DNA from: a virus
Virus record (IMG/VR): IMGVR_UViG_3300029286_003693
Coordinates: 18,731 to 82,730 of that record
DNA: 64,000 bases
Strand: one strand, 5' to 3'
In this document: piece by piece, positions 40,900 to 61,061 of the stretch
Layout: every line of letters begins with the position of its first letter
Numbering within the stretch: position 1 is the stretch's first letter
Notes under the pieces: model-generated
Databases searched by the model: none
What the model was told of the DNA's origin: nothing
Seen by the model: the letters and a program-made list of their open reading frames with translations, nothing else
Translations under genes and position numbers: made by a program

Positions 40900-42189
40900 T
40901 CAACCCTCTGCCACCGTTATCAAAAGAGGTTGCACGCTGTTGATCCGTTTGTCGGCTATCTCAACATATTCAGGATTCAGTTCGATCCCGATGAACCCAA
41001 ATCCCTCCGCTGCCGCTGCTTTCCCTGTTGAACCGCTACCCATGAAGGGATCAAGAATCACGCCGCCGGGAGGCGTAACAAGGCGGCAGAGGTAGCGCAT
41101 CAGGGCGGTTGGTTTGACTGTGGGGTGGAAATTACCCTTCGTGTCTGTGTTCTCAACCTTTCGGAGTGTGGTACCGTGGTGGAACTGGGGGCCAGGATTA
41201 TTCAGCCCTTCATTACGATCTTCCCGGCTCGCCTTTGCGCAGTAGAAGAACCGGGCGGTTGAACCGGAGTCGCCGGGGGTGTCGCGCTTTGTAATGTCTG
41301 GGTCCATGTATCCGTAGGTATTCCGGTTAGGTCCTTCAGAATTAAGCCTTCTTTGTCCTGCAGACATCTTCCCGCTCGTCGTCACCGGAAACAGCCCCAC
41401 CACTTGATCGCTGCCGTCATATATAAGGTTGGCAGGCCAGCGTCCGTTTGCACTCACGACCTCTGGCGTGTCGCTCCCTGTCTGATTCATCCCCCATCCA
41501 TTTTTCTCGCTTTTCTTCGAGCGGTTCATTGTCCTCAATTGTGATGCGTCGGCCTTCGGGTCAATTCCCACCCTGCACCCATCGATATTCAATCCCCCCG
41601 TCCCATACTTCAGGACGTTGGCGGCCACGGTACCGATTAAGGGCTTCCGGCAAACCAAGACCGGCTCCCATGCTGGCTTGAGGGCAGTGCCCCAGCCTTC
41701 CCATTGACGGGCGGTATCAGTTGCGGGGGCGGTGATGTCAAAAACCTTTCCACTTCCATCCATGTACCCAATTCCAGTATCCCCTTTACCGTGATTGTCG
41801 AGCTTTATCCTGTGCGGCCCACTGCCGTTTTCGTTGACGCCCACCACTTGCCGTTCTGCCCCCGCCGCCTTGTCGATCGCCTTACTCACATCTAGCGACT
41901 TAGGGAACCCTGAACCATACACCCACATCACGGTATCCCGAATCTCCCACCCCGCATCCTCTATCGCAACAGCCAGCCGGTGAAAGGTTCGTGTCCCACC
42001 AAAGGCCAGCATATACGCACCCGGCTTCGCTACCCTCAATGCCGCTTCCCAAAACGGAACACCCGGCACACCGTGATCCCAATCCTTACCCATGAAGGAA
42101 AGGCCATAAGGAGGATCACAGACGATGGAGTCAACCGATTCGGTTTCAAGCGTTGGCATAATGTTCAGGCAATCGCCCTCATAAATCAT
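40900..42189 (-). CDS. DNA amino-methyltransferase (beta class, DPPY)
   Basis: IVCDPPY motif IV; HPTVKP; ILDPFMGSGSTG motif I. Confidence 0.92.
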   Translation of the reverse strand: MIYEGDCLNIMPTLETESVDSIVCDPPYGLSFMGKDWDHGVPGVPFWEAALRVAKPGAYMLAFGGTRTFHRLAVAIEDAGWEIRDTVMWVYGSGFPKSLDVSKAIDKAAGAERQVVGVNENGSGPHRIKLDNHGKGDTGIGYMDGSGKVFDITAPATDTARQWEGWGTALKPAWEPVLVCRKPLIGTVAANVLKYGTGGLNIDGCRVGIDPKADASQLRTMNRSKKSEKNGWGMNQTGSDTPEVVSANGRWPANLIYDGSDQVVGLFPVTTSGKMSAGQRRLNSEGPNRNTYGYMDPDITKRDTPGDSGSTARFFYCAKASREDRNEGLNNPGPQFHHGTTLRKVENTDTKGNFHPTVKPTALMRYLCRLVTPPGGVILDPFMGSGSTGKAAAAEGFGFIGIELNPEYVEIADKRINSVQPLLITVAEG

Positions 42190-42569
42190 GACTGCATCAT
42201 CCCCACTTTAATATCGGGCCTGTTACTCGCCGGCTGCATGTCGATCACCGTGTTCGGGTCGTCGTACCCTGCCCTGAACGGCGGCATCTTCACGAGGTCG
42301 TCTATCCCATCCATGATCGTGTCTGTTATTGAAGACATCACCTGCACGAACTGACGCTTGCGCGTCGGCACCTCAATGTCAAACAACTTGCAGATTTGCA
42401 GCACCTTACCTGTTATGAACCCCCCGAACTCATCATTGTGCGTGTCGCTGTATTTCCAGAGGTCATCCAGTGTGATGATGAAGCGCTTCTTATTGTCCCG
42501 TTGCGCCCCGTTCAGGATCATGACTGGTTTACCCTTGAAGTATCCGTAGTCCCTCTCGATTACTCTCAT
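42186..42569 (-). CDS. Hypothetical protein
   Basis: 127 aa, coupled to both neighbours by ATGA overlaps. Confidence 0.7.
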   Translation of the reverse strand: MRVIERDYGYFKGKPVMILNGAQRDNKKRFIITLDDLWKYSDTHNDEFGGFITGKVLQICKLFDIEVPTRKRQFVQVMSSITDTIMDGIDDLVKMPPFRAGYDDPNTVIDMQPASNRPDIKVGMMQS

Positions 42570-43759
42570 GCTGTCACCGCGAATAAGAGAGGCTGCACGT
42601 TGTTAATCCGCTTCTCTGCCATTTTTGCATACTCAGGATTTAACTCGATACCGACGAAATTACGGCCTAACTTCTCGGCCACCAGCCCCGTTGTTCCGGC
42701 GCCGGAGAAGGGATCAAGGACGACGCAGGGAGTAGGTTCGTGGTTGTGGGTGCAGGTCGGTCGCCAATCGTTTGTTGCTATCCGTTGTGGCGTATATGTT
42801 GCGCCACTGAGCGACCTAATCCCTGAAGGATTTCCACCCTTATCTGGGAAATAATCTCCAACATCTTTTCGCGCCCTATCGTTCGTAGCACCCGTTTTCT
42901 CCACCATCCTCACCCACGGACTCCCGCACTCGGGGCAGCACCCCTTCTCACTCGTTCCGGCCTTAATACATGGCGTCACAAGGGCTTCGGGGAATGTGGC
43001 AAAATGGGCTCCAGGGAATGGCTGGGTGGGAATAGTCCAGACAGAACGGCAGTTGCGGCCAGTAGGATGGCCAACGCTGCGTTTCCGGCCGATTTTAGTT
43101 GCAGAGCTGGCTTTACTAAATGGGTCTATTAAATCCTTATGTTTTCCACCGATACGGTCTCGGCTTTCCTCCATTTTCTTAATATCAGATGGTCCGCTTT
43201 GACAAGCTTCCTTGATTGCCTCCGCGTCATAGTAATACCGCTGACTCTTAACCAGTAGGAACAAATACTCATGACTCTTTGTCGGTCTGTCCGTTACACT
43301 CTCTGGCATGGGGTTCGGCTTGTGCCAGATAATGTCGGAACGTAACCACCATCCGTCAGCTTGAAGGGCGAAGGCCACGTGCCAGGGGATCCCAATCAGG
43401 TCTTTGGGCTTCAATGTCTTAATATTGGTAGGCATACCAAAACGTGATTTTTCTGTTGATGGCTTACCAAACTCAGTATGTTTTGCTTGATATTCTGGGT
43501 TGCTTCCTGCTTTCCCGCTGCCATTATACGAATCTCCCAAATTCAACCACACCGTCCCGTCATCCCGCAGCACCCTCCGCACTTCCCGGAACACGGCTAC
43601 GAGCTTGGCTACATAGGCGTCTGGCGAATCCTCCAGCCCGATCTGGCCATCCACCCCATAATCCCGAAGGCCGTAATATGGCGGCGATGTCACAACACAC
43701 TGAACAGAATCGGGTTCAAGCGCAGGCATAATGTCCAGGCAATCACCTTGATAAATCAT
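42566..43759 (-). CDS. DNA amino-methyltransferase (beta class, SPPY; probable m4C)
   Basis: VTSPPY; HFATFP; VLDPFSGAGTT; Cys-rich insertion CCPECG. Confidence 0.92.
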   Translation of the reverse strand: MIYQGDCLDIMPALEPDSVQCVVTSPPYYGLRDYGVDGQIGLEDSPDAYVAKLVAVFREVRRVLRDDGTVWLNLGDSYNGSGKAGSNPEYQAKHTEFGKPSTEKSRFGMPTNIKTLKPKDLIGIPWHVAFALQADGWWLRSDIIWHKPNPMPESVTDRPTKSHEYLFLLVKSQRYYYDAEAIKEACQSGPSDIKKMEESRDRIGGKHKDLIDPFSKASSATKIGRKRSVGHPTGRNCRSVWTIPTQPFPGAHFATFPEALVTPCIKAGTSEKGCCPECGSPWVRMVEKTGATNDRARKDVGDYFPDKGGNPSGIRSLSGATYTPQRIATNDWRPTCTHNHEPTPCVVLDPFSGAGTTGLVAEKLGRNFVGIELNPEYAKMAEKRINNVQPLLFAVTA

Positions 43760-45093
43760 GCGGCCCACCCCGATAGCACCTGCCTGGTTCCTTGTTTCTG
43801 AATCCTCTTTGCCTTATACCCAACGGCAAATGTCCTGAAAGAATCCGCCCCGTGAGAGCAGTGGTCATGCAGCGGTGTCCGCTTGAGAATCTTTTTTTCT
43901 TCGTCGTATTCGGCCCTGTAGCCTTCCAAAGCCGATATGCCGGGTGAACACTTGCGTTCGTCAAACCAACACGAGCCAAGGGCGTTTCTGACGGCCTCGA
44001 TGCCGTTCATGACGGCGTCCGTGTTCCGGGGGCGCTCAACGACGATGATGGGCTTGATCCCCAGCTCCTCGGCTACCTCAACCCTGGACTTCGCGTGCTC
44101 CCCGGCGGACATTTCTCGTACCGCTGCGTCGTGGGGCATATAGTGATCACCGTAAACATAGGGCTTCTCTTTCAGGATCTTGGCGTAGTGAGCCAGGCCC
44201 ATGCCACTGTTCTCGTAATAATCGATGCACCTGGTCTCCTTGCCGATGAACTGCGCGAACCAGATCGTCATGCTGTCGTCCACACCCAGATCCCAGAACG
44301 TGTAGACCTCGGCGCCAGTCTCGTAGGGCACGCGGGTGATGCGGCCCTCCTTGTGAGCCAGCGCCATCTGCTTGCCGTAGTACGCGCCCATCACTGCGCC
44401 CTGGAACGAGCAGAAATACTCCTGCTGAAACATAGCCTCGCCCATCTCTTCGCCGAACGTTCCAACCAGCTCGGCACGGATCTCCTCCAATTTCACCTTG
44501 GTGAAGACAGGGGTGTCATCTGCGGTCAGGACTTGAGCGAACCAACCGGGTGTGATGCGGGCGAAATCCAACATTGTTTTCAGATGATTGTCGCCGCGGG
44601 ATGTGCTGATGAACGCGGCCCAGCCGCCATTTTCTTCGAGTATCGGGGAAAGGTAAGCCCATGACTGCGGGTTTGATAGCGCGTATTCGGAGAAGACGAT
44701 GCCGATCGGTGGGCTGCCGACCAAGGCATTGTAATTGTCGGAGCCCACAAGCTGCCAGGAAGAGCCGCCAACGAGGCCAATGTACATATCGGTGCTTCTC
44801 GTACTGGTCCTCATCTCCATCGGAAACGCCTCGTCGATCCTCTTCATGCCTGTGCGGGGGTTGACGGCTTCCCAAATCGCCTTACGGCACTGATTGAACT
44901 GTGGGAGCATGTGCCAGTAGTTTCCGACACGCTCCTGCGATGCCGTGGCGGTGAAGTGAAGGGCAATATCATCCTTCCCCCAGCGACGATGGGCGACCTC
45001 GACGGCACGCTTCCCACCATTCTCCAGGTAATCCCAGAGGGCGATCTGATCGTCGCGGGGTTCCCACCCGTTATGAGGTAGCTCGACTCCCAT
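43756..45093 (-). CDS. terL: Terminase large subunit
   Basis: HRRWGKD Walker A variant, IVFSEY, ISTSRG, WDLGVDD, SHGADSFR nuclease motif. Confidence 0.92.
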   Translation of the reverse strand: MGVELPHNGWEPRDDQIALWDYLENGGKRAVEVAHRRWGKDDIALHFTATASQERVGNYWHMLPQFNQCRKAIWEAVNPRTGMKRIDEAFPMEMRTSTRSTDMYIGLVGGSSWQLVGSDNYNALVGSPPIGIVFSEYALSNPQSWAYLSPILEENGGWAAFISTSRGDNHLKTMLDFARITPGWFAQVLTADDTPVFTKVKLEEIRAELVGTFGEEMGEAMFQQEYFCSFQGAVMGAYYGKQMALAHKEGRITRVPYETGAEVYTFWDLGVDDSMTIWFAQFIGKETRCIDYYENSGMGLAHYAKILKEKPYVYGDHYMPHDAAVREMSAGEHAKSRVEVAEELGIKPIIVVERPRNTDAVMNGIEAVRNALGSCWFDERKCSPGISALEGYRAEYDEEKKILKRTPLHDHCSHGADSFRTFAVGYKAKRIQKQGTRQVLSGWAA

Positions 45094-46063: not shown

Positions 46064-46589
46064 TTAGCCCGAGGGAACTGCAAGCTTTCAAGTGGAAAGC
46101 ATTACCTGATGACCCTGAATAAAATTGACTTAATGCTTGGGAGTAGAGTAGTAACGGACTCATAAACAAACGAACGATTCTGATTCTCATAATTATTCAT
46201 CTTTGGATATCTTGGGGTGGGTTAATGTTTCAGGTAATCAATAATATCTCTAATATGAATAGATCCCTCCAAAAAGCGGCAGTCAATACCCCCCCCCCCC
46301 CGACGCTCTAACATACTGTATTATAAAGACATTATCGTTACGCCACATTTGTGGGATGCCACCCACCGGTTTGATGCAGCCGGCGCGGCAGTTGTGTCAG
46401 TTTCAGCCCCGCTCCTTACGAACATCCGCACATCCTGCACCGTTATCGTATGACCGGCTGCGTTGCTTTGCGACGGATTCTGCCGAGTACAACCCATTGC
46501 CGAATCGACCGGCGTATGGCCATCCATCAGATCGAAATGCGGATGTTCTTTTGCAACATACTGAATCCGAATCAGGAGGGCTTTGATTA

Positions 46590-46937
46590 ATGCATGACTC
46601 GATTGATTTACCCGATGATTTGCGCGGGTTCATTGATTCTTCGCAATGGACGTTTTTCAGAACGATGCCGGAATGGCCCCACGAGTATATTGTCCGAGAG
46701 GGGGTAAACGAGAAGCTCTTTTTGCGGTTGGTTAGCCACATTCGAGCCAACGGATACGAGGGGAAGTTCCATTTGACAAACATTACCTGCTATGATGATA
46801 AAGGAATGGTTTACTGGACAACGGAGGGACCGGTTGATGACAGGATTATCATCAACCGTTGCAAGAAAGAGGACTCATATGAGTACCGGCGGCTAAAAGG
46901 TACGCTACCGGAATCGAAGATTATCGTAGGCGAATAG
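46590..46937 (+). CDS. Hypothetical protein (moron, opposite orientation to flanking genes)
   Basis: 115 aa; WTFFRTMPEWPHEYIVR...YWT...IINR; AGGAGG RBS. Confidence 0.75.
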   Translation: MHDSIDLPDDLRGFIDSSQWTFFRTMPEWPHEYIVREGVNEKLFLRLVSHIRANGYEGKFHLTNITCYDDKGMVYWTTEGPVDDRIIINRCKKEDSYEYRRLKGTLPESKIIVGE

Positions 46938-47161
46938 GCAGGTGCCGATTAATGCTTCACAGGCGGCTGACCAGTGCCTTTATTCCTTTGAGATTCATAA
47001 TGCTCGATTTATATGAATAGCATCTGTTAGCTCACATAGCATCGAGACGAGCCATCGTTCGTGGGGGACCGCCATGGTCAGGAAGAAAAAAGACATACAA
47101 ATGCAGCAGATTCAGGTTCCGCCCATTAATCCCGGTGAGTTGCCACAACTCTCAGGAGAAT

Positions 47162-47545
47162 TTATTTATCCGCTACTGCCTCGTCATGTTGCTTCAGCCA
47201 TTCGTCGATCTCGACTTTATAGAAGACTGGCCTCCCGTCCACCCAATACCGGAGAGGAGCCCTGTAACGCTTGATCCACCGTTTCGCTGACTTCCAGGAC
47301 CCGGCGTTGAGATACTTTCGGCACGCTTCCGGCCCGATGATCCAACCCATGGCGCAGTCGGCCATGCACTTCCTGACCAGCTTCTCCATCTGCGTATGGA
47401 ATTCCTTGTTCCAGGCATCCGACCACTCCTCGGCAGGCATTTCCCCTCTCGTTTTCCCACATTTTTTATTGGCTTTGTCTTCCGCCGCGGGGATCACCCC
47501 TTCGCGCATCTCGATATAATCCTTGTTGATCTTGGCTTTCGGCAT
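47162..47545 (-). CDS. HTH DNA-binding protein (excisionase/AlpA-like C-terminus); possible late-gene regulator
   Basis: IIGPEACRKYL...SWKSAKRWI...GRPVFYKVEIDEWL; last gene before the late region. Confidence 0.6.
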   Translation of the reverse strand: MPKAKINKDYIEMREGVIPAAEDKANKKCGKTRGEMPAEEWSDAWNKEFHTQMEKLVRKCMADCAMGWIIGPEACRKYLNAGSWKSAKRWIKRYRAPLRYWVDGRPVFYKVEIDEWLKQHDEAVADK

Positions 47546-47618
47546 CTGCTTCTCCTTCTGGGCTTACCGCTATTAAATTCACTCCGTTATTTTAAGATTC
47601 CGAAGAGTGCACTAATTA

Positions 47619-47771
47619 TCCTTGCCTTGCCGAGCCACACCCGGCCTCGCCACACTGAGCCATGTCTAACAGTGCCTGTCCTTGCCAGAACTACCCCAAC
47701 CCAATCTCGCCTTGCCCAACCACATCCTGCCTTATCCTGCCGCACCTGGCCCCGCCATGCCAAAACTTGCC
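47619..47771 (-). repeat. (GGY-NN)n pentamer array C, 31 units; candidate guide RNA
   Basis: Unbroken 5-nt phase; 20 of 31 trimers are exactly GGY and the rest differ by one base; starts 2 nt after a stop codon. Confidence 0.9.
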
Positions 47772-48204
47772 GACTACCGGAACGCCTCCAATGTCTTCAC
47801 ATACGGAAGCTGATCTTGAGTCTCTTGCACTCTTGCTTCGATCTTTTTGATGCTGCTACCCTTCGTCATCACAGCCATGACTCCCAGCACAGACGCATAA
47901 GTGTTTAGCCTGACCTTCTCCTCATTCGGCATGATCGACATATCGGATATACAGGCCATCCGATTGAGAGACCTCCTGGTCGTTCGTTTGATATGGGCAA
48001 TGCTGAATGCGCCCGTGTTGATAATCTCGGTATCATCCTGTAACCCCGCACATTATTTTGATTGAAGCGGGTATCTTTTTATCACGATGTTTTGTATGAG
48101 AGGCAGAGTCGTGCACATTGATTTGATCATAAAGAAAGAGGGCAACCGAAGGTTGATTGGTTTGGCCGCCATCCCCGTTGGTTACCCTCTCAGAAAGCGG
48201 TATC

Positions 48205-48660
48205 TTGATACTACACCTTGCGGTCGATGTAAAGGTTTTATTCGAGAGGGGGAAGAGGTTCCCATGGTTGAAGCATTTGCGGTGCCCTCGATGTGGGAGC
48301 GCGAGACTATGGGGGCACGGATTTGCGGAGCGATATTTTGAGGGATTCGGCAAGTGTTTATGGGTGAAGCGGTTCCGCTGTCCGGATTGTCTTGCCATCC
48401 ATACCTGCCGGCCATTGGGATTTTTGAAAGGTTTTCGATATTCTGCCGGCGTGATCCGTTCAAGTCTGTTGAAAAAGATTACGGAGAACGCCTGGGTCAG
48501 AGGCGTTGTGCGGCAGAACCAGCAGTACTGGTTTCGTTGTCTTCGGTTTCGGATCTCCGGTCGCTGTAATGTGAACAAGCCCGCCATCGATTCCATCGCG
48601 TTATTTTTTTCCGAGAGAATCTTTCCCGTGACAGAACATTTTGCGCCGCTGCGCATATGA
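48205..48660 (+). CDS. Cys-rich accessory protein of the element (DUF6431-like); start uncertain
   Basis: CPRC...HGFAER...KRFRCPDC...HT. Confidence 0.7.
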   Translation: MILHLAVDVKVLFERGKRFPWLKHLRCPRCGSARLWGHGFAERYFEGFGKCLWVKRFRCPDCLAIHTCRPLGFLKGFRYSAGVIRSSLLKKITENAWVRGVVRQNQQYWFRCLRFRISGRCNVNKPAIDSIALFFSERIFPVTEHFAPLRI

Positions 48661-48743
48661 TGGTTTCCCCACCTTCTTCTTGCGTCGATAAGTCCATGAC
48701 GCCTCTGGTATGGGTAGCGAAAATCTTTCAGGAGGTGTTTGCT

Positions 48744-50057
48744 ATGGACGAAGAAGGAAAAAGACGGATTGCGCAGTTTCGGTTCGGGGTGATTCACGAT
48801 CTGATCGGTGACAGGAAGCTGAGTCGAGGAGAGCAAAAGAGGCTTCTTCGGGAGAAGTCTTCCTGCACATGGGAGATCCCCGGTTCCGGACGGAGTTACA
48901 TCAGCGCCTCGACGATCCTGAGTTGGACCAGACGGTATGAAAAGGGAGGCCGCAGGATCGAGAGCCTCTACCCGGAAGCCCGGTGCGATCGAGGACGGCC
49001 CCGTATCCTCGACGATGAAACGATCCTTTCCCTGGTGGAGCTCAAAAAACAGATGAAGGAGGTCTCCCTGCCGGTCATCCTGCGAGAGGCAAAACTCCGG
49101 AAGATCTTTCATCCGGGGATCAAGGTTCATCCCGCCACCATTTACCGCCTGTTCAAAGAACGGGGTTTGATGAAGCGGGAAGAAGTTCGGATAGATCGCA
49201 GACGCTTCGAGGCGGAACTGCCCAACGACATCTGGCAGTCCGACGGCATGCACGGCCCCCGGATCACTCACGAAGGGAAAGAAAGAAAAACCTATCTGTT
49301 CGCTTTCATCGACGACATGAGCCGGCTGATCTGCCACGCAGAGTTTTTCTGCCATGAGCGGGTGGAACATTACACCGCCGCCTTGAGAGTCGCCCTTGCG
49401 AAACGGGGCTTGCCGAGGAAGCTCTATGTGGACAACGGCCCCGCCTTTCGATCTCATCTGCTGGCTCACGCCACTGCTTCTCTGGGCATTGCCCTGATTC
49501 ACTCCACCCCCTACCAGCCCCAGGGCCGGGGAAAAATCGAACGGTTCTTCCGCACCCTGCGCATGCAGTTTCTCAGTACATGCCCCGAGGGGCTTTCCCT
49601 GGAAAAACTCAATGACGGCCTCAACCGATGGCTCGACGAGCAGTATAACGTCACCATACATTCCAGCACGAAGCAGACACCCTTGAACCGCTATCTCAAA
49701 CATGCCCATCTGCTCCGGGAAGCCCCGAAAGATTTAAATGATTACTTCCGCATCCGTACCACCCGAAAGGTGGATCGGGACCGAACCGTTTCGCTTAACG
49801 GCATGCTCTATGAAGCCCCGATCCCTCTGATCGACAAGACGATCACTCTGCTGTATCATGATGGCGACCCCGCACGAATCGAGGCCTTCCATGAGAGCGT
49901 CTCCCACGGCATGCTCGTTCCCCTGGACATGAAGATCAACTGCCGAATCCGAAGAGAACACCACATCGTCAAACTTCTATCATCGGAGCAAGCCCCGGAA
50001 GAACAACCCAAATACACCGGCGGAAAACTCTTCGGGGAGGTGGACCATGGGCTATAA
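48744..50057 (+). CDS. DDE transposase/integrase (rve core, Mu-like C-terminus)
   Basis: WQSD, FIDDMSR, YVDNG, GKIERFF; AGGAGG RBS. Confidence 0.95.
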   Translation: MDEEGKRRIAQFRFGVIHDLIGDRKLSRGEQKRLLREKSSCTWEIPGSGRSYISASTILSWTRRYEKGGRRIESLYPEARCDRGRPRILDDETILSLVELKKQMKEVSLPVILREAKLRKIFHPGIKVHPATIYRLFKERGLMKREEVRIDRRRFEAELPNDIWQSDGMHGPRITHEGKERKTYLFAFIDDMSRLICHAEFFCHERVEHYTAALRVALAKRGLPRKLYVDNGPAFRSHLLAHATASLGIALIHSTPYQPQGRGKIERFFRTLRMQFLSTCPEGLSLEKLNDGLNRWLDEQYNVTIHSSTKQTPLNRYLKHAHLLREAPKDLNDYFRIRTTRKVDRDRTVSLNGMLYEAPIPLIDKTITLLYHDGDPARIEAFHESVSHGMLVPLDMKINCRIRREHHIVKLLSSEQAPEEQPKYTGGKLFGEVDHGL

Positions 50058-50847
50058 AACCTTCTTCAGCTTCCAGAAAGAACCCTTCTCTCAAGATATC
50101 CGCGTGGAAGATCTCTACCCCCTGCCGGGTCTCCAGGCCGCCTCGGAACGCCTCCTTTATGCCCTTTCCCTCGGCGCCGCCTCCATCATCACCGGCGACG
50201 TGGGAAGCGGCAAATCCACAGCCCTCAGATACGCCACCGCCAAACTCCACCCTTCTCAGTACAAGGTCGTCTCGGTCATCGCCTCCACCGGCTCCATGGC
50301 CGACACCCTTAGGCAAATCTGCAATGGCTTCGATCTGGATGGGCAAACCAACTCACTTGCCAGGCTCACCAAAACCCTGCGCACAGCCATCCTGGAAATC
50401 TCCCAGAGAAAGCAGATCCCCGTATTGATCATCGATGAGGCCTCTCTGATGAGGCTGGAAATCTTCGCCCAGCTCCACACCTTAAGCCAGTTCGACATGG
50501 ATTCCAAACCCCTGCTCCCGATCGTCCTGGCAGGCCAAAACAACCTCGTCGACAAGCTCATGTTCCATGCCTCAAGACCTCTGGCTTCCCGAATCATCGG
50601 CAGAAGCCATCTTGAAGGCCTTAAATACAAAGATATGGCGGGATACATCCAGCACCACCTGAAGATCGCCGGCAGTAAAGACCAATTGTTCTGTGATGAA
50701 GCCATACTCGCCATCCACCAAGGCTCAGGCGGCCTCCTCAGAAGGGCCAACCTCCTGGCAAAAGGAGCCCTCATGGCCGCGGCGAATGAAAAATGCCAGC
50801 TCGTTTCACCAGAACATGTCAGAATGGCGTCCACCGAAATCATGTGA
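50047..50847 (+). CDS. ExeA-like AAA+ ATPase (transposition helper)
   Basis: GDVGSGKS Walker A, LIIDEA Walker B, LAGQ. Confidence 0.93.
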   Translation: MGYKTFFSFQKEPFSQDIRVEDLYPLPGLQAASERLLYALSLGAASIITGDVGSGKSTALRYATAKLHPSQYKVVSVIASTGSMADTLRQICNGFDLDGQTNSLARLTKTLRTAILEISQRKQIPVLIIDEASLMRLEIFAQLHTLSQFDMDSKPLLPIVLAGQNNLVDKLMFHASRPLASRIIGRSHLEGLKYKDMAGYIQHHLKIAGSKDQLFCDEAILAIHQGSGGLLRRANLLAKGALMAAANEKCQLVSPEHVRMASTEIM

Positions 50848-51211
50848 AAAGAACACCAAACACCGGAAGGGATAACCCATCCCTTCCGGTCAATCTCTAT
50901 TGCAAAACATCAAACGATTGTAAGATTATCGAGTCAATTTATTGTGCGACGTTACACATCCAGGCGTTTCAGCCCCTGGTTGATTACCACGCCGAATATC
51001 TTCCCATCTTCACGTTCTGCCATGCTGCGGGCCGTGTTGAGAAAACCACGCCCTTCCTTCTGGACATCCCGCCCGATAATCCCATTAAGCTCTTCGTATG
51101 TGACAAAATCTCCGATGTCCATCTCCGCCAACCGCTGATACATCAACCTTGCGTCCGCGCTTGCCTCCCTGATCCATTTCTTTTCCATTCCCCTCCCCTT
51201 CCTGTTAGAAA

Positions 51212-51309
51212 ACCTTGCCTAGCCTCACTGTTCCACGCCCTGCCAAGCCACGCCTTGACGCGCCCAGTCTAATCTTTCCTTGCCGAGCCGCTCCCAGCCC
51301 AGCCCTGTC
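51212..51309 (-). repeat. (GGY-NN)n pentamer array B, 20 units; candidate guide RNA
   Basis: Unbroken 5-nt phase; 12 of 20 exact GGY; starts 2 nt after the Cas7-like stop codon. Confidence 0.9.
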
Positions 51310-51311
51310 TT

Positions 51312-51869
51312 TTATCCCCAGACGATTTCCTTCACCTGAAATCGCCCGTAGAACCCGTTGTTCTGAGGTCTGAAACGCCCAATACCGATAAACTTGCCCG
51401 CCTCTTCAAGGTGTAGCCTGAAAACATCCTCGGTGATCGTCTCATCAAGAATGAAAAATGATACCGGGCCGGACCATACCGGGATAACCGGGAAGCATCT
51501 CTTGACCCGCTTTCCGCCTCCACGCCTCCCATCCGACGGGACGAAATACCACTCACCCGCCACGTCTTCCTTTTTGACTGGCAAGACAAGAGCCTCAGTT
51601 ACCAGCACCCCTGCTTCTATGTGCTTCGTGAAGGTCGATTTCCCCTTTCCGGGAATCTGGATTGACAGATACTTCGCCACCGACGACAGGCAATTCTTGA
51701 AGCTCATAGGAGGAATGAAAACATTACCCTGCTCATTTGCGTGCATTCTATCCCGCCACGTTCTCGTTTCGTAATCATCGGGCCTTTCCTTTTGGAGCTT
51801 TGCCGTCTCGTAGAACTTTGATTGACTGTAAGGACTGATGCTTTCCAACTGACAAATTGCTGTTTTCAT
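51312..51869 (-). CDS. Stand-alone RAMP/Cas7-like protein
   Basis: 185 aa; N-terminal strand ending in SP, FIPPMSFKNCL, and C-terminal Gly-rich loop AGKFIGIGRFRPQNNGFYGRFQV characteristic of RAMP proteins. Confidence 0.75.
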   Translation of the reverse strand: MKTAICQLESISPYSQSKFYETAKLQKERPDDYETRTWRDRMHANEQGNVFIPPMSFKNCLSSVAKYLSIQIPGKGKSTFTKHIEAGVLVTEALVLPVKKEDVAGEWYFVPSDGRRGGGKRVKRCFPVIPVWSGPVSFFILDETITEDVFRLHLEEAGKFIGIGRFRPQNNGFYGRFQVKEIVWG

Positions 51870-51900
51870 AGATTTCCCCTCTCTCGTTTGTGATTAAATA

Positions 51901-51958
51901 ACCTTGCCTTGCCAAATCATACTATGCCCAGCCTTGCCTGGCCGCACCGAGCCTAACC
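51901..51958 (-). repeat. (GGY-NN)n pentamer array A, 12 units; candidate guide RNA
   Basis: GGT-TA GGC-TC GGT-GC GGC-CA GGC-AA GGC-TG GGC-AT AGT-AT GAT-TT GGC-AA GGC-AA GGT. Confidence 0.9.
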
Positions 51959-52198
51959 CTGACGAGTATTTTCGTCCCCTTTCTCCTCCTCGATCCTGAG
52001 CCCCCTCCGGCCAGCCCGAACAACTTGTGAGACGAACCGTCCGACCGACTCCGCCGCCAGGAGATCGGCGTACATTTCCGGCTGCACTCCAGCGTATTGA
52101 TAAATGCCGCCCGACTTGAATTCCACTTCCAGGACCTTCGTCTCCGCGTCGTACCCGACTGACTTCACATTTGTTGACTTAACCGGCTTTCTTTCCAT
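51953..52198 (-). CDS. KTSC domain protein
   Basis: MERKPVKSTNVKSVGYDAETKVLEVEFKSGGIYQYAGV...LLAAESVGRF. Confidence 0.9.
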   Translation of the reverse strand: MERKPVKSTNVKSVGYDAETKVLEVEFKSGGIYQYAGVQPEMYADLLAAESVGRFVSQVVRAGRRGLRIEEEKGDENTRQG

Positions 52199-52352
52199 TG
52201 CGTTCCCCCTTATTGTCGCACCCCGAACATATATCAGTTCCAGCCTCACAAGATTCTCCACATACATCACAGATATTCCCTGTGCCGTTGCACGTTAAGC
52301 AATCCGTATCTTTCGCCCCGTACCCCGATCCATCGCAATCTTGGCATTCCAT
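52179..52352 (-). CDS. Small Cys-rich zinc-finger protein (57 aa, below ORF-track cutoff)
   Basis: MECQDCDGSG...CLTCNGTG..CDVC...CSGC; GGAGGT RBS. Confidence 0.7.
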   Translation of the reverse strand: MECQDCDGSGYGAKDTDCLTCNGTGNICDVCGESCEAGTDICSGCDNKGERNGKKAG

Positions 52353-52368
52353 AACCACCTCCGTTGAC

Positions 52369-52737
52369 TTAGAAGTTCACGGCTTTCTTTCTAAAACTCT
52401 CCAGAATTCCCCTCAGTTCCACTCGCTTGGCGACATAGTCCATGTCTTTCACAGCCTCGGATGACCTCCGGCGAAGCTGATAGTATCGGTCTCCCATTCG
52501 TTCGACCATGAATTCCTTGAATAGCCTCGGGTGATTGTGTGCAAATCCGGTATGGCACTGCGTACAGAGGCCGATAACCGCCTCCGGGTCGAAGGCGGTA
52601 GCGAGCCGGTCGCGCTTGAATAAGTGATGACCAGCTTCGCCCAGTCTACTACACTCTGGGTTCTGGCAGCCCTTGTCTCTTGCGAGGGCGATCATCTGGA
52701 TCAGCTTATAGCAATCGTCTTTGGCTTTTGAACTCAT
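52369..52737 (-). CDS. NinG/Rap-like HNH-type nuclease
   Basis: RDKGCQNPEC...AGHH...LCTQCH; located after the replication genes. Confidence 0.7.
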   Translation of the reverse strand: MSSKAKDDCYKLIQMIALARDKGCQNPECSRLGEAGHHLFKRDRLATAFDPEAVIGLCTQCHTGFAHNHPRLFKEFMVERMGDRYYQLRRRSSEAVKDMDYVAKRVELRGILESFRKKAVNF

Positions 52738-53483
52738 AGTCGGTTTTTCCTGTAATCCGGCATATTGATTTTTATATTTTCCATACCAGCGAGTCGTGAG
52801 GCAATTCTGGCCCCGAACGTCGCATCAATTTCCTCTTTCGTTAGATTTGTCGTGATGATTGTTTTCCGGCACTCCCGAATACGACGGTCGAGGATGATGT
52901 AGAGCGTCGTGATCGCAAATTCAGATACTTTTTCCGCTCCCAGGTCGTCGAGAACAAGAACGGGGATTTCTGAATATCTACTGATGATTTCATCTTCTGA
53001 TTCAGACCCCCCACTGAACGAGGATCTTATTTTTAATAGCAGGTCTGGAACTGTGATAAACCGCGCAGTGAATGCACTCTGCCCCTGAATCATTGCCACG
53101 GCCAGGTGTGTTTTCCCGCATCCCGTATTCCCACGGATGACGACATGGTCATCGCTTCCGGCGATCGCTATCAGGTCGGTAACGAGTTTTTCGTTCCCCT
53201 GGTAGCTCTCGAAGGTGCATCCCCCGAACAGTTTAGGCACTCCTGAGTAATGCAACTGCCATGTTTTTTCTGGTTCCGGTTTTAGATCCACACCATAAAT
53301 TCTCTCCTCATGAAACGGAATCACATTGTCGCTCCTCTCGCGTGAGATCGCCATGCACCGCTCGGCGATAGACTGGAAATCAGTATTCTCGGTCTGCGGG
53401 GTATGGCTGCCCGTCTGACTGAGCACCGCCCGTTTTTGCGTGAGCCGTTCTTGAGCCCGCTGTAATTCCTGATACATTGCCAT
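52734..53483 (-). CDS. DnaC/IstB-like ATPase (helicase loader); start uncertain
   Basis: GNTGCGKTHL, LVLDDLG, TIITTN, RIASRL, DYR. Confidence 0.9.
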   Translation of the reverse strand: MAMYQELQRAQERLTQKRAVLSQTGSHTPQTENTDFQSIAERCMAISRERSDNVIPFHEERIYGVDLKPEPEKTWQLHYSGVPKLFGGCTFESYQGNEKLVTDLIAIAGSDDHVVIRGNTGCGKTHLAVAMIQGQSAFTARFITVPDLLLKIRSSFSGGSESEDEIISRYSEIPVLVLDDLGAEKVSEFAITTLYIILDRRIRECRKTIITTNLTKEEIDATFGARIASRLAGMENIKINMPDYRKNRL

Positions 53484-56465: not shown

Positions 56466-57698
56466 ATGGCACAAACACCAGTCGTAAAGAACGGAAATCA
56501 GCCGGCACCCCCGCCGGTGGTAGCGCTGATGAGCATCGAGGCGGCGCTCAAGTTGGTTGAACAGAAGGCCCCCGAGGCTTTCCCCGTCCTCTCCGGAGTG
56601 GTCCGAAAGGACATCGTATCCCTCGGGACTGACGACGCCTTTGCGCTGCGCGACCAGGAAGGCGAGATCCGGGCGTTCAAGCAGCCCCTCACCCTTAGTG
56701 AAAAAGCCGGAACACTGATTCAGCCTGTACCCGGTGGACCTTTCGCCGTCTCGGCTCAAGGGTACGAGGTATGGCAGGAAGCGGCCGGAGCGTGCGTCAT
56801 CTTCCCTTCAGAGGTCCTGGTCGACGGGAAGTGGCAGGCCAACCCCGCCGTGATCAGGGATACGAAGAACGGGCGTATCCTGATGATCTACGCTCGGGCG
56901 GTAGCGTTCCGGTTCTCGTCCAAAGGTATCCCGATGGTCTCCGACTGGACAACCATTTACGATACCCCTTCTTACCGCATGATTGACCTTCTGGGGAAGG
57001 CAAAGCAGTTTCCCCAGGCATTCACCCTTCTCCCCTCGGACATGGCACCTGAAAAAGAAAAAGGCACATGGGCGAAGTATCCCTTTGATGAAGCCACAAA
57101 CCTTTGGATGAACACGACACACGACGAGGCCTTGCGATGGCTGGCGTCGATCATCAACCGCGAAAAGAAAAGCATCGACTTCGCCCAGACCTTCGCCAAG
57201 CGGAATTCCCTCAAGCACCTCAGCGGCATCCAGAAGGCCCCCGGCTCGCAGTGGACCATACCCGTAATCTCATGGCGGCCCATCTCCGGAAACATCATCA
57301 AATGGGATGCGACGCAGTATGCCAACCTTCAGGCTCGTGTCGGGAAGATGATCTCCGGGGACCGGAGCGAGTTCGCGGCAAAAGAAATAGAAATGCGGAC
57401 CGGGGCGGAGAGGGTTTCTGATGACCTGAATGCAGTCCAGGAGGAAGCCCACATCGATCCCGAGGACCAGGATAGAGTTATCGATGTCGCCCCAGAGAAG
57501 GTCACGGAGAAGAAGCAGCCCGATGGACATGTCTCCAAGGTCATGCAGAATCTTGCTGTCGCCAAGAAGGAATTCCATGACGAGTACCTTGCTGCATGTC
57601 AGTCCATGGGGATCGAAGCGGACGCGGATATGACGGACGAGCATGCCATCAAGATCATGAATACAATCAACGAGACGCTGGATAAGGCAGCAGCGTGA
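56466..57698 (+). CDS. Hypothetical protein, possibly recombination/single-strand annealing
   Basis: 410 aa, strong RBS, first gene of the recombination cluster; function inferred from position only. Confidence 0.6.
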   Translation: MAQTPVVKNGNQPAPPPVVALMSIEAALKLVEQKAPEAFPVLSGVVRKDIVSLGTDDAFALRDQEGEIRAFKQPLTLSEKAGTLIQPVPGGPFAVSAQGYEVWQEAAGACVIFPSEVLVDGKWQANPAVIRDTKNGRILMIYARAVAFRFSSKGIPMVSDWTTIYDTPSYRMIDLLGKAKQFPQAFTLLPSDMAPEKEKGTWAKYPFDEATNLWMNTTHDEALRWLASIINREKKSIDFAQTFAKRNSLKHLSGIQKAPGSQWTIPVISWRPISGNIIKWDATQYANLQARVGKMISGDRSEFAAKEIEMRTGAERVSDDLNAVQEEAHIDPEDQDRVIDVAPEKVTEKKQPDGHVSKVMQNLAVAKKEFHDEYLAACQSMGIEADADMTDEHAIKIMNTINETLDKAAA

Positions 57699-57707
57699 GG
57701 AGGGGTT

Positions 57708-58760
57708 ATGATTAGCAAAGTCACAGCAACAGGGTTCAAGGGGTGCGACTTCGAGCAGGACCTTTCCGAGCGCACCCTATTCGTCGGCCCGAACGGCGCC
57801 GGCAAATCGGCCCGATCCCAGGCCCTCCAGCTTGCCGTCAACGGGGGCGTCATCGGGGCAGGAAAGACGAATGACGATATCCTCTCCACGTTCGGGGAGG
57901 GAGACAAGCTGGTCGTCGGCGTGGAGATCGACGGAAAATACCTCTTTCAACGGGGGTTTGTCCGGGGACCATCCGGGTCTGTCTCCCAGGGTTACAAGGC
58001 GGGCGGGGTCAAGGTCTCGAAAGATTACTTCATGAAAGCCCTCGGGGAGTCGGGCGCTCCTGTCGTCCTGAACGTGGCCGACTTCATGGCGCTATCGGAC
58101 CAGAAGAAAATCGAAGCATTGTTTCAGCTATACCCTCCCGCGGGGGACATCAGCGCCGTGCAGGGGAAGATCGATACGTCCAAAGAGAAAATCAACTCCC
58201 TGGCCACAAAAGTGAAGACATCGGAACAAGCAGCGGCCCGTATTGCATCTTCAAAATCGCAGATCCAGGTCCCTGCGGGAACGCTCGCAGAGGTTGATGC
58301 TCAGATTTCCGCCATGGAGACAGAACTGAAGGAGGCTCAAGACAGCCTGACGCAGATCCGCCTGGAGGAGCAGAGGGCGGCGGATGAACTGAAGGCCAAG
58401 GATGAGGCTGAGCGGAAGGAAAAGGAACAGATCGCGGCGGCGGAAAAGGCCCAGGCCGAAAAAGCGGCTGCTGAAACCACCGCCATCACCGACGAAGCCG
58501 TGCAGAAGTCCCTGGCCGAAAGGCCGGGGGAGATGTCGAAGAAGTGTGAAGCGCTGTTTGGGGAGAAAAAAGCAAACCCGCTGATGGATCAATACCCCTC
58601 AGTCGCGCAAGCCGTTCAGGGAGTAATCGCAAATAACGGATCTGCGGCTTCCATCCAGGCCATCATCACAGCCATGGACGAAGCCGGGTGTGAATCCTGC
58701 GCGGCGAAGATGATCGCTCGCCGGGAACTAAGGAAATACAAGGAGGCGCAAAATGGATAA
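57708..58760 (+). CDS. Rad50/SbcC-like ATPase, N-terminal half
   Basis: ISKVTATGFKG, GPNGAGKS Walker A, coiled coil, terminal CESC. Confidence 0.85.
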   Translation: MISKVTATGFKGCDFEQDLSERTLFVGPNGAGKSARSQALQLAVNGGVIGAGKTNDDILSTFGEGDKLVVGVEIDGKYLFQRGFVRGPSGSVSQGYKAGGVKVSKDYFMKALGESGAPVVLNVADFMALSDQKKIEALFQLYPPAGDISAVQGKIDTSKEKINSLATKVKTSEQAAARIASSKSQIQVPAGTLAEVDAQISAMETELKEAQDSLTQIRLEEQRAADELKAKDEAERKEKEQIAAAEKAQAEKAAAETTAITDEAVQKSLAERPGEMSKKCEALFGEKKANPLMDQYPSVAQAVQGVIANNGSAASIQAIITAMDEAGCESCAAKMIARRELRKYKEAQNG

Positions 58761-59304
58761 ACAGATCATTGAAGACCAAATCATCGGCATCAATTCCCGG
58801 ATCATAGCGCTCCGGAAGGACAGGGACGTCCATGTCCGCCTCCAAGGGCTGAACGTCGAAGCCGAGAAACTTCGCGGAGAGGCGTCTGCAGATGCCGTGC
58901 AGATAGAAAAGGAAAAGGTTGTAGTGACCGTCCTGTTGGCCCAACGGCAGCAGATCGTTCAAAGCACCATCGTAGGGCTGTCAAAACGCATGGTGGAGAT
59001 CCTTCCGGTCGGCAGGCCGGATATCCAGATCACCGAGGACGGCGGCGTCTATATCGGATGGGTCCGCCAGGACGGAAAGAAAGTGGCTTATGCAGGGCTC
59101 TCTGGTGGGGAGAAGGCGCTTTTTGACCCAGCCCTTGCCTATGCCCTCAAGGCGAATGTGCTCCTGCAGGAGAGTGCAGAACTGGATGAAGAACGTCTAT
59201 TGGAATCCCTGGGGAAGTTTAACGGGGCGAAGGTCCAGGTCGTCGTCTCAACCTGCCATGCCCCGGCGGTACTTCCTGCAGAATGGAAGGTGATTCAACT
59301 ATGA
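58753..59304 (+). CDS. Rad50/SbcC-like ATPase, C-terminal half
   Basis: LSGGEK signature, LLQESAELD (variant Walker B/D-loop), STCH. Confidence 0.8.
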   Translation: MDKQIIEDQIIGINSRIIALRKDRDVHVRLQGLNVEAEKLRGEASADAVQIEKEKVVVTVLLAQRQQIVQSTIVGLSKRMVEILPVGRPDIQITEDGGVYIGWVRQDGKKVAYAGLSGGEKALFDPALAYALKANVLLQESAELDEERLLESLGKFNGAKVQVVVSTCHAPAVLPAEWKVIQL

Positions 59305-61061
59305 CTCAACTCGACCTTCAGCAGCAAGCAGCCGCCACCACCACATCCCTACGCGCCCTGGTTCTTGCCGGCGCCGGGAGCGGTAAGAGCCGTTGTCTCA
59401 TCGAGCGCATCGCCTGGTTGATCGAAACGCAGAAGGTAAGCCCCACGGAGATCATAGCATTTTCGTTTACCAGAAAAGCCAGCGGCGAGATCCGGGACCG
59501 CCTCAAGGAGAGGATCGGCGGGAAGGCAACCGGCGTGCAGATGGGGACAATGCACGGCCTCTCCCTGGAGTTCATCCACCGCTTCGGAGAAGTCATCGGT
59601 CTCCGGCCAGCCAATGTCACCGTCTATGGTGACTTTGAATCAGGCTACCTACTCGCGGATGTCGCTCAGGAAATGAGCGCGAAGAAGCCCTCCATCAAGG
59701 CCGCGAAAGAGGCCCTTGAACGATACTACCAGACGGGCGAGGAGCCGAAAGAGGACGACCCTGGACGCGATCTATTCATGGTGTTCCTGGCAAGGTGCCG
59801 AGAGAATAACGCCGTTTCGTATGGATCACTTCTCGTCGGGATGCGGCTTCTCGTCCCGACGCTGGCCAAGTATCTCCACGTCCGGCATATCCTGGTTGAC
59901 GAAATTCAGGACATCGATCCTTTACAGTGGAACGTCATCAATGAAATGGTCTCGGCGTTCGGGTGTTCGCTCTTCGTCGCGGGGGACATCGATCAGAGCA
60001 TCTATGAATTTCGCGGAGCCGTTCCCCGCTACCTCGTTGACCACTCGGGAGAGTTCGACATCTACCGGCTGGAGGCGAATTACCGGAGTATGCCGGAGAT
60101 CGTCAAGGCGGCGAACAGGCTGATAGAAAACAATCAGGATCGAATCACAAAGACCATGAGGGCGACACGGGAAGCTCCGGCACTCGCACCGGAAAGCGTT
60201 CAGGTTGAAAACAACATCCAAAGCGAAGGGATCGTGGCCAGGGCCAATTCGTGGCACTGCACAGAGGCCCCCGTCGCCATCCTCGCCCGGAAACACTCCC
60301 TCCTCGGAAAGATCGACCGCCTCATGGAGGAGGCCGCTATCCCTCACACCTACATCGGCAAGACCACGGCTCTGACCAATTCGGAGCCCTTTCGTCGTTT
60401 CCATGCGTTTCTCAAATTGGCCGTCAACCCGTTCGACAACATGAGCTTTCTCCTGATCCGCGATATCATCGGGCTCTCGCGGGAGGAGTACGGGCGGATC
60501 AGGCTCTCTGCGGCGCAGACCGGGAGGAGTCATTTCCGGGTTCTCATTGAAAGATACGCCTTGGTAAGTACAGAAGACTTGAACATAACACACCTTGAAA
60601 ACAACCCCCTTATTACAGGCGGATCTTTATCGCAGTGCGCCGAATGGCTGAACGAACACCACCCCGACCTCTCTCCGGAGTCCATGGCCTTCATCCAGAA
60701 GTATGTCGCCGGCCATCCTGACGACATCGCCTCCTACCTCGACTGGCTCGCCACGTTCGACGTTCAAGACGAGATCAACGGGGAAGGGGCTGAAGGCATC
60801 ACCCTGGCAACCATTCATGCCGCCAAAGGGCTGGAATGGCCCGTCGTCATCGTCGCTGGATGCAACGAGGGAATCATCCCGGCGCGACCGAACGACACGG
60901 ATGAGATAGAGGGGGAGCGGCGCTCGATGTACGTCGCCATGACCCGCGCCATGGATCAGCTTATACTGACCGTCCGGCCCATGGAGTCAACAGACGCGGC
61001 GGGGAGGGTGCATAACTCGCCGGAGAGCCGGTTTATCACGGAACTGCAAGGAGATAGGTAA
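59301..61061 (+). CDS. UvrD/PcrA-family helicase
   Basis: AGAGSGKS, FTRKA, VDEIQD, GDIDQSIYEFRGA, NYRS, TIHAAKGLEW, YVAMTRA. Confidence 0.95.
   Translation: MTQLDLQQQAAATTTSLRALVLAGAGSGKSRCLIERIAWLIETQKVSPTEIIAFSFTRKASGEIRDRLKERIGGKATGVQMGTMHGLSLEFIHRFGEVIGLRPANVTVYGDFESGYLLADVAQEMSAKKPSIKAAKEALERYYQTGEEPKEDDPGRDLFMVFLARCRENNAVSYGSLLVGMRLLVPTLAKYLHVRHILVDEIQDIDPLQWNVINEMVSAFGCSLFVAGDIDQSIYEFRGAVPRYLVDHSGEFDIYRLEANYRSMPEIVKAANRLIENNQDRITKTMRATREAPALAPESVQVENNIQSEGIVARANSWHCTEAPVAILARKHSLLGKIDRLMEEAAIPHTYIGKTTALTNSEPFRRFHAFLKLAVNPFDNMSFLLIRDIIGLSREEYGRIRLSAAQTGRSHFRVLIERYALVSTEDLNITHLENNPLITGGSLSQCAEWLNEHHPDLSPESMAFIQKYVAGHPDDIASYLDWLATFDVQDEINGEGAEGITLATIHAAKGLEWPVVIVAGCNEGIIPARPNDTDEIEGERRSMYVAMTRAMDQLILTVRPMESTDAAGRVHNSPESRFITELQGDR

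Follow-up and report, generated by a model that had tools for sequence, protein, structure and literature searches.

Whether the non-coding pentanucleotide arrays that flank a small Cas7-like phage gene are guides of an RNA-guided system, and against what such guides would be directed, is the question raised by positions 47,619 to 51,958 of a 64,000-nucleotide (nt) stretch of DNA, hereafter the window, which covers positions 18,731 to 82,730 of the IMG/VR virus record IMGVR_UViG_3300029286_003693. A reading made from the letters of the window, referred to below as the sequence-only reading, had described three arrays in which a GGY trimer alternates with a variable dinucleotide (NN) around a gene with motifs of the RAMP type and a smaller accessory gene, had proposed a candidate non-CRISPR system acting on competing phages, and had attached the name VIPR to loci of this kind. 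On the analysis reported here, we consider it highly probable that a temperate tailed phage carries a VIPR system at this locus, in which guide A is aimed at P4-like integrase genes and the accessory gene, vap, is split by a transposon.

That name is in print: VIPR stands for Viral Interference Programmable Repeat and is the subject of four bioRxiv preprints from April to October 2026, so that the word "candidate" overstated the novelty of the system, which was published in April 2026. The preprints describe Vipr and vap genes and vrRNAs composed of GGY/NN units, a rule by which 1 nt of the target is skipped, transcriptional repression, targets in competing elements, seven VIPR types, and alternative repeat consensuses (10.64898/2026.04.26.720920). 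In the structural account, one Vipr protomer sits on each repeat and holds its GGY trimer (10.64898/2026.04.26.720927), and in the SUSP1 system the vrRNAs silence the recombinase of a satellite, with the skipping of wobble positions blocking escape (10.64898/2026.10.15.759431). VIPR itself being already known, what is new here is the 11-unit guide A with its integrase target and the transposon-split vap.

The 185-amino-acid (aa) protein encoded between arrays A and B is identified as Vipr by its sequence similarity to the solved Vipr and by its predicted RAMP fold. The open reading frame (ORF) and the motifs that had been noticed in it, FIPPMSFK and a glycine-rich stretch, are present; the glycine-rich loop spans residues 162-177 and contains GIGRFRPQNNGFYGRF, which is invariant across the Vipr family in an alignment of 40 sequences, and a thumb hairpin lies at about residues 104-129. 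The protein matched no Pfam family. As a single sequence it matched the PDB chain 36pp_D, "SUSP1 Vipr protein", with an expectation value (E) of 7e-4 (residues 96-180 to 108-188), and a profile of 40 homologs matched the same chain at E 5.3e-7, the runner-up standing at E 0.023; a match to phrog_4652, of unknown function, was also obtained. The Cas7 relationship suspected in the sequence-only reading is borne out by the AlphaFold2 model (predicted local distance difference test (pLDDT) 87.6, predicted template modelling score (pTM) 0.81), for which Foldseek returned 67 PDB matches at E <= 0.001. The best listed of these were type VII Cas7, Csm3, Cas7-11, Cmr, and Cascade Cas7, with E down to 1.1e-6, and the template modelling score against Cas7-family chains was about 0.5 at 10-18% identity. 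A family search recovered 3,111 clusters at E <= 0.001 from 3,184 candidates, and among the best 120 listed homologs none had a Pfam domain and the source names, where given, read "hypothetical protein". A sediment metatranscriptome contig of 258 nt aligns over positions 51461-51718 of vipr with 6 differences, a weak hint that the vipr of a close relative is transcribed, for which DNA carry-over is a possible source.

A recount of the three minus-strand arrays returned the reported 12, 20, and 31 units at the reported coordinates (Table 1). Every unit is at most one substitution from GGY, the 5-nt phase is unbroken throughout, and, as had been described, the arrays start at or near stop codons and end in GGCAAGG(T/A), array B with GGCTA GGCAA GGT followed by a T-rich stretch and array C with GGCAA GGCAA GGA. 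The description of array A stands as to its units and phase and requires amendment at its 5' end, which in functional terms lies 10 nt further upstream, at 51968. Phased GGY at 6/10 or above is confined to arrays A, B, and C in both the window and the full 82,730-nt contig, the plus strand of the window reaching at most 4/10; the contig maximum was 8/10, while 100 shuffles gave a mean maximum of 4.5 and a highest value of 6. Tandem Repeats Finder did not report the arrays in the window, because just three of each five positions repeat, and it found no CRISPR-like repeat there either; PADLOC matched no cas genes among the 42 of 72 picked ORFs of the window that were scanned, in agreement with the absence of CRISPR components noted earlier. 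The length of arrays B and C, together with internal stretches that resemble the terminal motif, suggests that each may hold two or three vrRNAs.

Association of such arrays with vipr extends well beyond the window. We assembled 106 homolog loci, of which 26 came from genomes spread over many phyla and 80 were the best of 155 confirmed viral-contig loci, and scanned them with a detector that is indifferent to the identity of the trimer and calls an array when 6 or more of 8 phased trimers are identical. With the window included, a period-5 array was found within 1.5 kb of vipr and on the strand of the gene in 88/107 loci; in the 19 loci where none was called, inspection of 17 flanks by eye revealed mostly period-5 tracts with mixed trimers, which were not counted. 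In four loci whose Vipr is 76-87% identical to that of the window (L027-L030), arrays occupy equivalent positions and have identical 3' ends with unrelated NN pairs, so the co-occurrence of homologs with arrays of varying NN on a fixed scaffold, which the sequence-only reading had named as a check, is found in practice. Arrays commonly end in two units with NN = AA and a partial unit, followed mostly by A/T-rich sequence. This AA-AA terminal motif is present near vipr in 72/88 loci; it was counted 209 times in 289 kb around the gene and 18 times in 772 kb elsewhere, and 227 copies lie on the strand of the gene versus 10 on the opposite strand, a bias from which we conclude that the arrays are oriented with the gene. 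No guide was found in common with other loci: the best cross-locus window of 8 units reached 14/16, and the hits of array A were not arrays (those of arrays B and C were left uninspected).

Guide A is the guide for which a natural target, recognized by sequence matching, is well supported. Its NN pairs are TC AG TA TC GC CA AA TG AT AT TT, and its units 1-3 overlap the final codons and stop of the upstream KTSC gene; the two units that precede the array as originally reported, TACTC and GTCAG, lie inside the end of that gene. Units 1-9 of array A, read with a 1-nt gap, had four exact matches in IMG/VR, three of which fall on the antisense strand of codons for K-M-M-Q-L-W-A-D-Y with the free bases all on wobble positions, so that a search suggested in the sequence-only reading led to integrase genes of other mobile elements. 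The full 11-unit guide reads the first two codon positions of K-M-M-Q-L-W-A-D-Y-L-D, a conserved C-terminal motif of P4-like tyrosine integrases, and the units TACTC and GTCAG match this target even though they were outside the original query. With a 1-nt skip, all 22 positions match in the integrase genes of two sequences (G001 and G003), and 21/22 match in a third (G002) and in three other integrase loci; at spacings of 0 or 2 nt no more than 17/22 matched.

The motif stands at the C-terminal end of integrases of 406 and 418 aa in G001 and G003, which are 70% identical to each other and have the domains Arm-DNA-bind_3, Phage_int_M, and Phage_integrase; that of G001 is encoded near a 972-aa DUF927 protein. 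The third exact match lies in a short frame (L111, from G002, 1170-1342) with a methylase-like gene and a tail-fibre-like gene on either side, and this frame may be an integrase remnant. Among 20 integrase relatives that include the C-terminus, the number of matched positions out of 18 was 18 in two, 17 in three, 16 in four, 15 in three, 14 in six, 13 in one, and 12 in one, amounting to 15 or more in 12/20, and seven truncated integrase loci reached 9-11/18.

The set of loci behind the 22-position scan was enriched in integrases, and the unbiased controls are the scans with the backward pattern in IMG/VR and in 301 genomes. The backward pattern of guide A had no match in IMG/VR. A 16-position pattern (array B units 10-17), which had 15 chance-like IMG/VR matches, served as calibration and places the number of matches expected by chance at about 1 for 18 positions and about 0.004 for 22. 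The 301 genomes were sampled from the phylum of the Geobacteraceae metagenome-assembled genome (MAG) that holds L007; with at most 2 mismatches of 22, guide A had 18 sites in 14/301 of these genomes, and the backward control had 0 sites. In the phage's own 82.7-kb contig, no self-target rose above shuffled controls at skips of 0, 1, or 2 nt, and the perfect matches at a 3-nt skip are the arrays themselves. The phage's integrase gene (61814-63046) is of a different type and the motif is absent from it.

Searched for exact matches in IMG/VR, array B yielded none with its units 9-18, and array C none with units 20-28 or with units 9-17; these database scans required exact matches, so that targets with a few mismatches would escape them. 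The 15 IMG/VR matches of B units 10-17 were considered as targets and set aside, as none extends on the 5' side and a single one (L126) matches the next 3' unit. The seven matches of C units 20-28 in metagenome contigs, five of which are one sequence, were likewise rejected because none extends. In the integrase-bearing G001-G003, windows of arrays B and C at a 1-nt skip reached no more than 14/16, a level equalled by other spacings, and over 1.4 Mb of related loci they scored 17/22 at best, as wrong spacings also did.

The accessory gene reported as an intact ORF of 163 aa is in fact in two pieces, with a Mu-like transposon of 2,918 bp inserted after codon 77; this transposon went unmentioned in the sequence-only reading and makes up about two thirds of the span that it reported. 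The transposon has imperfect terminal inverted repeats starting TGTAAC and is bordered by a 5-bp target duplication, CATCC, at 48034-48038 and 50957-50961, and the vap ORF as it stands (51188-50952) ends one codon into it. Intact homologs in 15 loci align over their residues 1-77 with the 5' part of vap, and the two halves are collinear and in frame on intact homologs, for example at 3754-3975 and 3973-4230 of L011 and at 3688-3894 and 3892-4152 of L003. In the model of the intact 166-aa homolog of L027 (pLDDT 92.7), a winged helix occupies residues 13-77 and a helical domain comes after, which places the insertion at the boundary between the two domains. Foldseek matched this model weakly to regulators of the GntR/FadR type (E >= 0.036), and vap matched no Pfam family. 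A vap homolog lies on the strand of vipr in 59/106 loci, and the gene order is not constant, vap preceding vipr in L007, L013, L016, L019, and L023. A DNA contig of another study spans the left transposon junction with zero differences, and no transposon-free allele was seen in the sequencing runs compared. Contigs of related transposon copies in other samples stop exactly at 50956, and copies about 90-95% alike occur in contigs of sediment and groundwater RNA libraries. With vap cut in two by the transposon, the VIPR system is probably weakened or disabled in this copy.

Table 1 Features of the locus, with coordinates in the window
Feature	Coordinates	Strand	Description
KTSC-domain gene	51953-52270	minus	105 aa; Pfam KTSC, E 8e-22; 3' end overlaps the start of vrRNA A
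vrRNA A	51968-51901	minus	11-unit guide (51968-51914) and terminal GGCAA GGCAA GGT (51913-51901)
Array A	51958-51901	minus	12 units: 10 exact GGY, 2 one substitution off
vipr	51869-51312	minus	185-aa stand-alone RAMP/Cas7-like protein
Array B	51309-51212	minus	20 units: 12 exact GGY, 8 one substitution off
vap, 5' part	51188-50957	minus	codons 1-77, winged-helix domain; aligns to intact homologs
Mu-like transposon	48039-50956	plus	2,918 bp; single copy in the contig
AAA_22 MuB/TniB-like ATPase	50047-50847	plus	266 aa; within the transposon
rve/DDE transposase	48657-50057	plus	466 aa; within the transposon
Zinc-finger ORF	48157-48660	plus	167 aa; within the transposon
vap, 3' part	48038-47774	minus	87 codons and stop; helical C-terminal domain
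Array C	47771-47619	minus	31 units: 20 exact GGY, 11 one substitution off

If the locus works as its published counterpart does, the minus-strand order of KTSC gene, array A, vipr, array B, vap, and array C would constitute an operon, probably read as one transcript, and the KTSC gene is probably transcribed together with the VIPR locus. Vipr protomers would assemble along the guide at one per 5-nt unit, each holding a GGY trimer and leaving the NN pair exposed, an arrangement established for SUSP1 and carried over here by homology; the sequence-only reading had arrived at the same picture of one protomer per GGY and NN pairs that read a gapped target, which coincides with the published mechanism (10.64898/2026.04.26.720920, 10.64898/2026.04.26.720927). 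From the SUSP1 work, the exposed pairs would be expected to read double-stranded DNA with every third base of the target left unread, and binding would involve a triplex and result in transcriptional silencing. Guide A would thus bind the integrase genes of other prophages, satellites, and integrative elements in the host regardless of synonymous variation, and binding would block integrase expression, much as the SUSP1 VIPR immobilises a satellite by silencing its recombinase.

Several observations weigh against this account. The SUSP1 residues D177 and R138, which help to read the first and second G of the trimer (G1 by H17 and D177, G2 by R138 and W178, with R179 in the pocket for Y3; 10.64898/2026.04.26.720927), align to R165 and F126 in the window's Vipr, and recognition of the GGY trimer may accordingly differ between the two proteins. 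In arrays B and C, 35-40% of the trimers are degenerate, and neither array gave a target in the exact scans of IMG/VR, nor did the array C pattern that was scanned in the metagenome collection. When the arrays were folded together with the sequence downstream of them, the z-scores were -0.74, -1.16, and +0.25, none of them significant, and a structured 3' tail like the SUSP1 pseudoknot is not apparent; Rfam had no match at E <= 1 in positions 46500-53000 of the window. The arrays of a VIPR system are expected to be expressed as vrRNAs of about 100 nt that co-purify with Vipr, and in two RNA runs no contig covers any array, the contigs that were obtained covering relatives of the transposon and the 258-nt piece of vipr. 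Finally, vap is broken, and loss of vap1, a possible counterpart of the window's vap, from SUSP1 abolished protection in natural infection, where vap1 is required (10.64898/2026.10.15.759431).

Some of these points could be gathered into an alternative in which the locus is VIPR by descent and has become a decaying relic, its vap knocked out, its arrays B and C drifting, and nothing silenced, which we regard as possible but doubtful. The split at codon 77, the identical insertion in a DNA contig of a different study with no transposon-free form in the runs compared, the degenerate trimers of arrays B (8/20) and C (11/31), the lack of a target for either array in the searches made, and the effect of vap1 loss in SUSP1 would all be expected of a relic. 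However, vipr is full length and keeps every invariant column of the 40-sequence alignment, guide A still matches at 22/22 including two units with degenerate trimers, and degenerate trimers are common in intact relatives as well; the reading frame of the winged-helix half of vap is still open, and in heterologous assays VIPR repressed without vap1, which merely enhanced the effect (10.64898/2026.04.26.720920). It is also improbable, in our judgment, that guide A matches integrase genes by coincidence and has its real targets elsewhere. Only one of at least three guides found a match, about one exact IMG/VR match is expected by chance for an 18-position pattern, and an abundant conserved motif multiplies matches once a single member fits. 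Against this stand the extension to 22/22 through units that had not been queried, for which the expectation is about 0.004 per pattern, the codon phase of the match with all skipped bases on wobble positions, the empty backward controls (0 in IMG/VR, and 0 versus 18 real sites in the 301 genomes), and the failure of 0- and 2-nt skips; the recombinase of a rival element is, moreover, the class of target shown experimentally for SUSP1.

If the integrase match is accepted as real, the complex might still act on RNA, with vrRNA A antisense to the integrase mRNA and blocking or marking the transcript. Guide A does carry antisense-strand sequence in every matched integrase gene, and the Vipr filament pairs with single-stranded RNA in vitro (10.64898/2026.04.26.720927). 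According to the same source, though, SUSP1 filaments on RNA were mostly incomplete and formed no triplex, and the natural SUSP1 targets lie on both strands, with either DNA strand being repressible (10.64898/2026.04.26.720920); a strand bias, furthermore, cannot be shown by a single guide, and we hold action on RNA to be decidedly improbable. That the arrays are no guides at all, and instead represent microsatellites of a pentanucleotide or DNA sites bound by protein, next to a small gene unrelated to them, we find scarcely credible. It would fit the absence of a transcript over the arrays in the two RNA runs and of a predicted promoter (no sigma-70-like promoter was predicted on the minus strand at 47400-52600, and terminator-like sites there were at chance level). 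It would not fit the presence of an array beside the gene in 88/107 loci from many phyla or the strand bias of the terminal motif (227 versus 10), and slippage would not fix three positions while two vary freely; the guide has a match, and the homologous SUSP1 system is experimentally proven (10.64898/2026.04.26.720920). A VIPR system with guide A directed at P4-like integrases and an interrupted vap is the reading that we carry forward, and the elements of the sequence-only interpretation were each tested and upheld.

The homolog loci also reveal variation in the scaffold trimer. In the 88 loci with an array the trimer was GGC in 49, CGC in 13, GAC in 12, GTC in 4, GTT in 3, and CTC in 2, the others being single, and relatives whose Vipr is 49-78% identical to that of the window use GAC, CGC, GTC, GTT, CTC, or CAC instead of GGC. 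Kept in this clade are the 5-nt period, the AA-AA terminal units, and a pyrimidine at position 3 of the trimer (87/88 loci). On a quick, poorly resolved tree, the trimer required 42 changes versus a shuffled mean of 45.4 and is thus barely clustered. Residue 126 was the alignment column that tracked the trimer best and residue 165 ranked third; these are the positions aligned to SUSP1 R138 and D177, the readers of G2 and G1. Residue 126 is F in 52/52 loci with a G-initial trimer and Y in 10/11 CGC loci and 1/2 CTC loci, while R165 and E106 are replaced in 6/10 GAC loci. A phylogenetic pairs test of co-variation between trimer and residue had just 1-2 independent pairs on well-supported branches. 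We tentatively raise the possibility, which we think rather unlikely, that the scaffold trimer is a locus-specific handle that co-evolves with Vipr in this clade; the family data point to residues 126 and 165 as those that might set the specificity of the handle. Were this so, switches of handle would give mutually orthogonal VIPR systems, their orthogonality would be an escape from hijacking by the "solo vrRNA" of satellites, and a route to engineered orthogonal handles would follow. Non-canonical trimers as such have already been reported (10.64898/2026.10.21.760802).

Two further features of the array loci were observed in the relatives. Tracts of CGC-NN 300-400 nt long, equivalent to 60-80 units, occur at 9224-9984 of L094, 209-969 of L099, and 7712-8062 of L100, and far exceed the length of SUSP1-type vrRNAs, described as 9-16 units. 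Between the arrays of L001 (about 1000-1100) and of L002 (about 2860-2925) lies a conserved spacer of some 60 nt that has paired segments and a GAAA loop, and a similar inter-array spacer is found downstream of vipr in L032 and L036, the window being without one. A VIPR preprint mentions hammerhead-interspersed arrays; the identification of the spacers as hammerhead ribozymes was not confirmed, there being no Rfam ribozyme match, and Rfam searches of ten related loci at the gathering threshold, and of four at E <= 1, returned nothing but one meaningless snoRNA match.

The surrounding contig is the virus record of a temperate tailed phage, with genes for a CI-like repressor, an integrase, a replisome organiser, a DnaC-like loader, the small and large terminase subunits, and a P22-like portal, and the VIPR locus is situated between the replication genes and the terminase. 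DNA of this phage is present in lake and freshwater metagenomes. The nearest named homologs of the portal, at 86-87% identity, are from MAGs that bear the labels Pseudomonadota and Syntrophales and do not settle the host. Between the repressor and the integrase lies a plus-strand cluster of four genes (56466-61061) whose last gene encodes a 592-aa UvrD-type helicase that matches models of Gabija GajB (E 1e-63), with a 350-aa SbcC/AAA-like ATPase encoded ahead of it; no GajA model matched, and the cluster may be a prophage-borne defence system. On the minus strand at 40900-43768, adjoining the large terminase gene, are two DNA methyltransferase genes (429 and 400 aa, both phrog_67) with a 127-aa ORF between them.

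The proposed reading would extend the logic of VIPR in phages of E. coli and Pseudomonas, in which a gapped guide passes over wobble bases and is directed against a rival element's recombinase, to an uncultured freshwater temperate phage of a distant Vipr clade. It adds a concrete and testable natural target, the K-M-M-Q-L-W-A-D-Y-L-D motif, present in about 5% of the genomes (14/301) of one sampled phylum, and a natural VIPR locus that has been hit by a transposon bears on whether vap is dispensable.

With regard to known systems, TIGR-Tas is another non-CRISPR system in which guides are encoded in tandem arrays; its arrays have an 18-nt period and its Tas effector has a Nop domain, with no RAMP protein, and we saw no similarity between it and the window locus. 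Cas7 protomers assemble on a guide in fixed steps, and with the backbone of Class 1 CRISPR-Cas effectors (Cas7/Csm3, as in type III, type VII, and Cas7-11) the window's Vipr has in common an RNA recognition motif (RRM) core, a glycine-rich loop, and a thumb. In contrast to these effectors, the window showed no repeat-spacer array and, among the ORFs scanned, no Cas5, Cas6, Cas1, Cas2, or nuclease, the step of VIPR is 5 nt with 2 read as opposed to 6 nt with 5 read, and the locus is phage-borne. The locus belongs to no CRISPR-Cas type, and only the Cas7-like fold is common to both.

The closest comparison is with the type II VIPR of SUSP1 and Pseudomonas fulva, which, like the window, consists of a phage-borne stand-alone RAMP gene, a small accessory gene, and flanking GGY-NN arrays. 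The 11 units of guide A fall in the range of 9-16 given in the published account, one base on a wobble position is skipped per two read, and the target is the recombinase gene of a competing element, with no self-target. Differences are nevertheless evident: the window's Vipr is distant (E 7e-4, with about residues 96-180 alignable) and has R165 and F126 in place of D177 and R138, the vap of the window carries an insertion, and the target here is an integrase of the tyrosine type, whereas the SUSP1 target is described as a recombinase with a catalytic serine. The window's arrays follow each gene, whereas SUSP1 has one upstream vrRNA and a downstream cluster. The arrays here end in two AA units, a partial unit, and an A/T-rich stretch with no pseudoknot tail, and because folding z-scores and Rfam indicate no structured 3' tail and a short AA-AA terminal motif is present instead, we do not file the locus, on these sequence features, under type II VIPR. 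A preprint has described 21 clusters of non-canonical arrays, for example GAC/NN and CAC/NN, beside Vipr-like folds (10.64898/2026.10.21.760802); set beside these, the window's own arrays are canonical GGY, and it is its relatives that carry non-GGC scaffolds.

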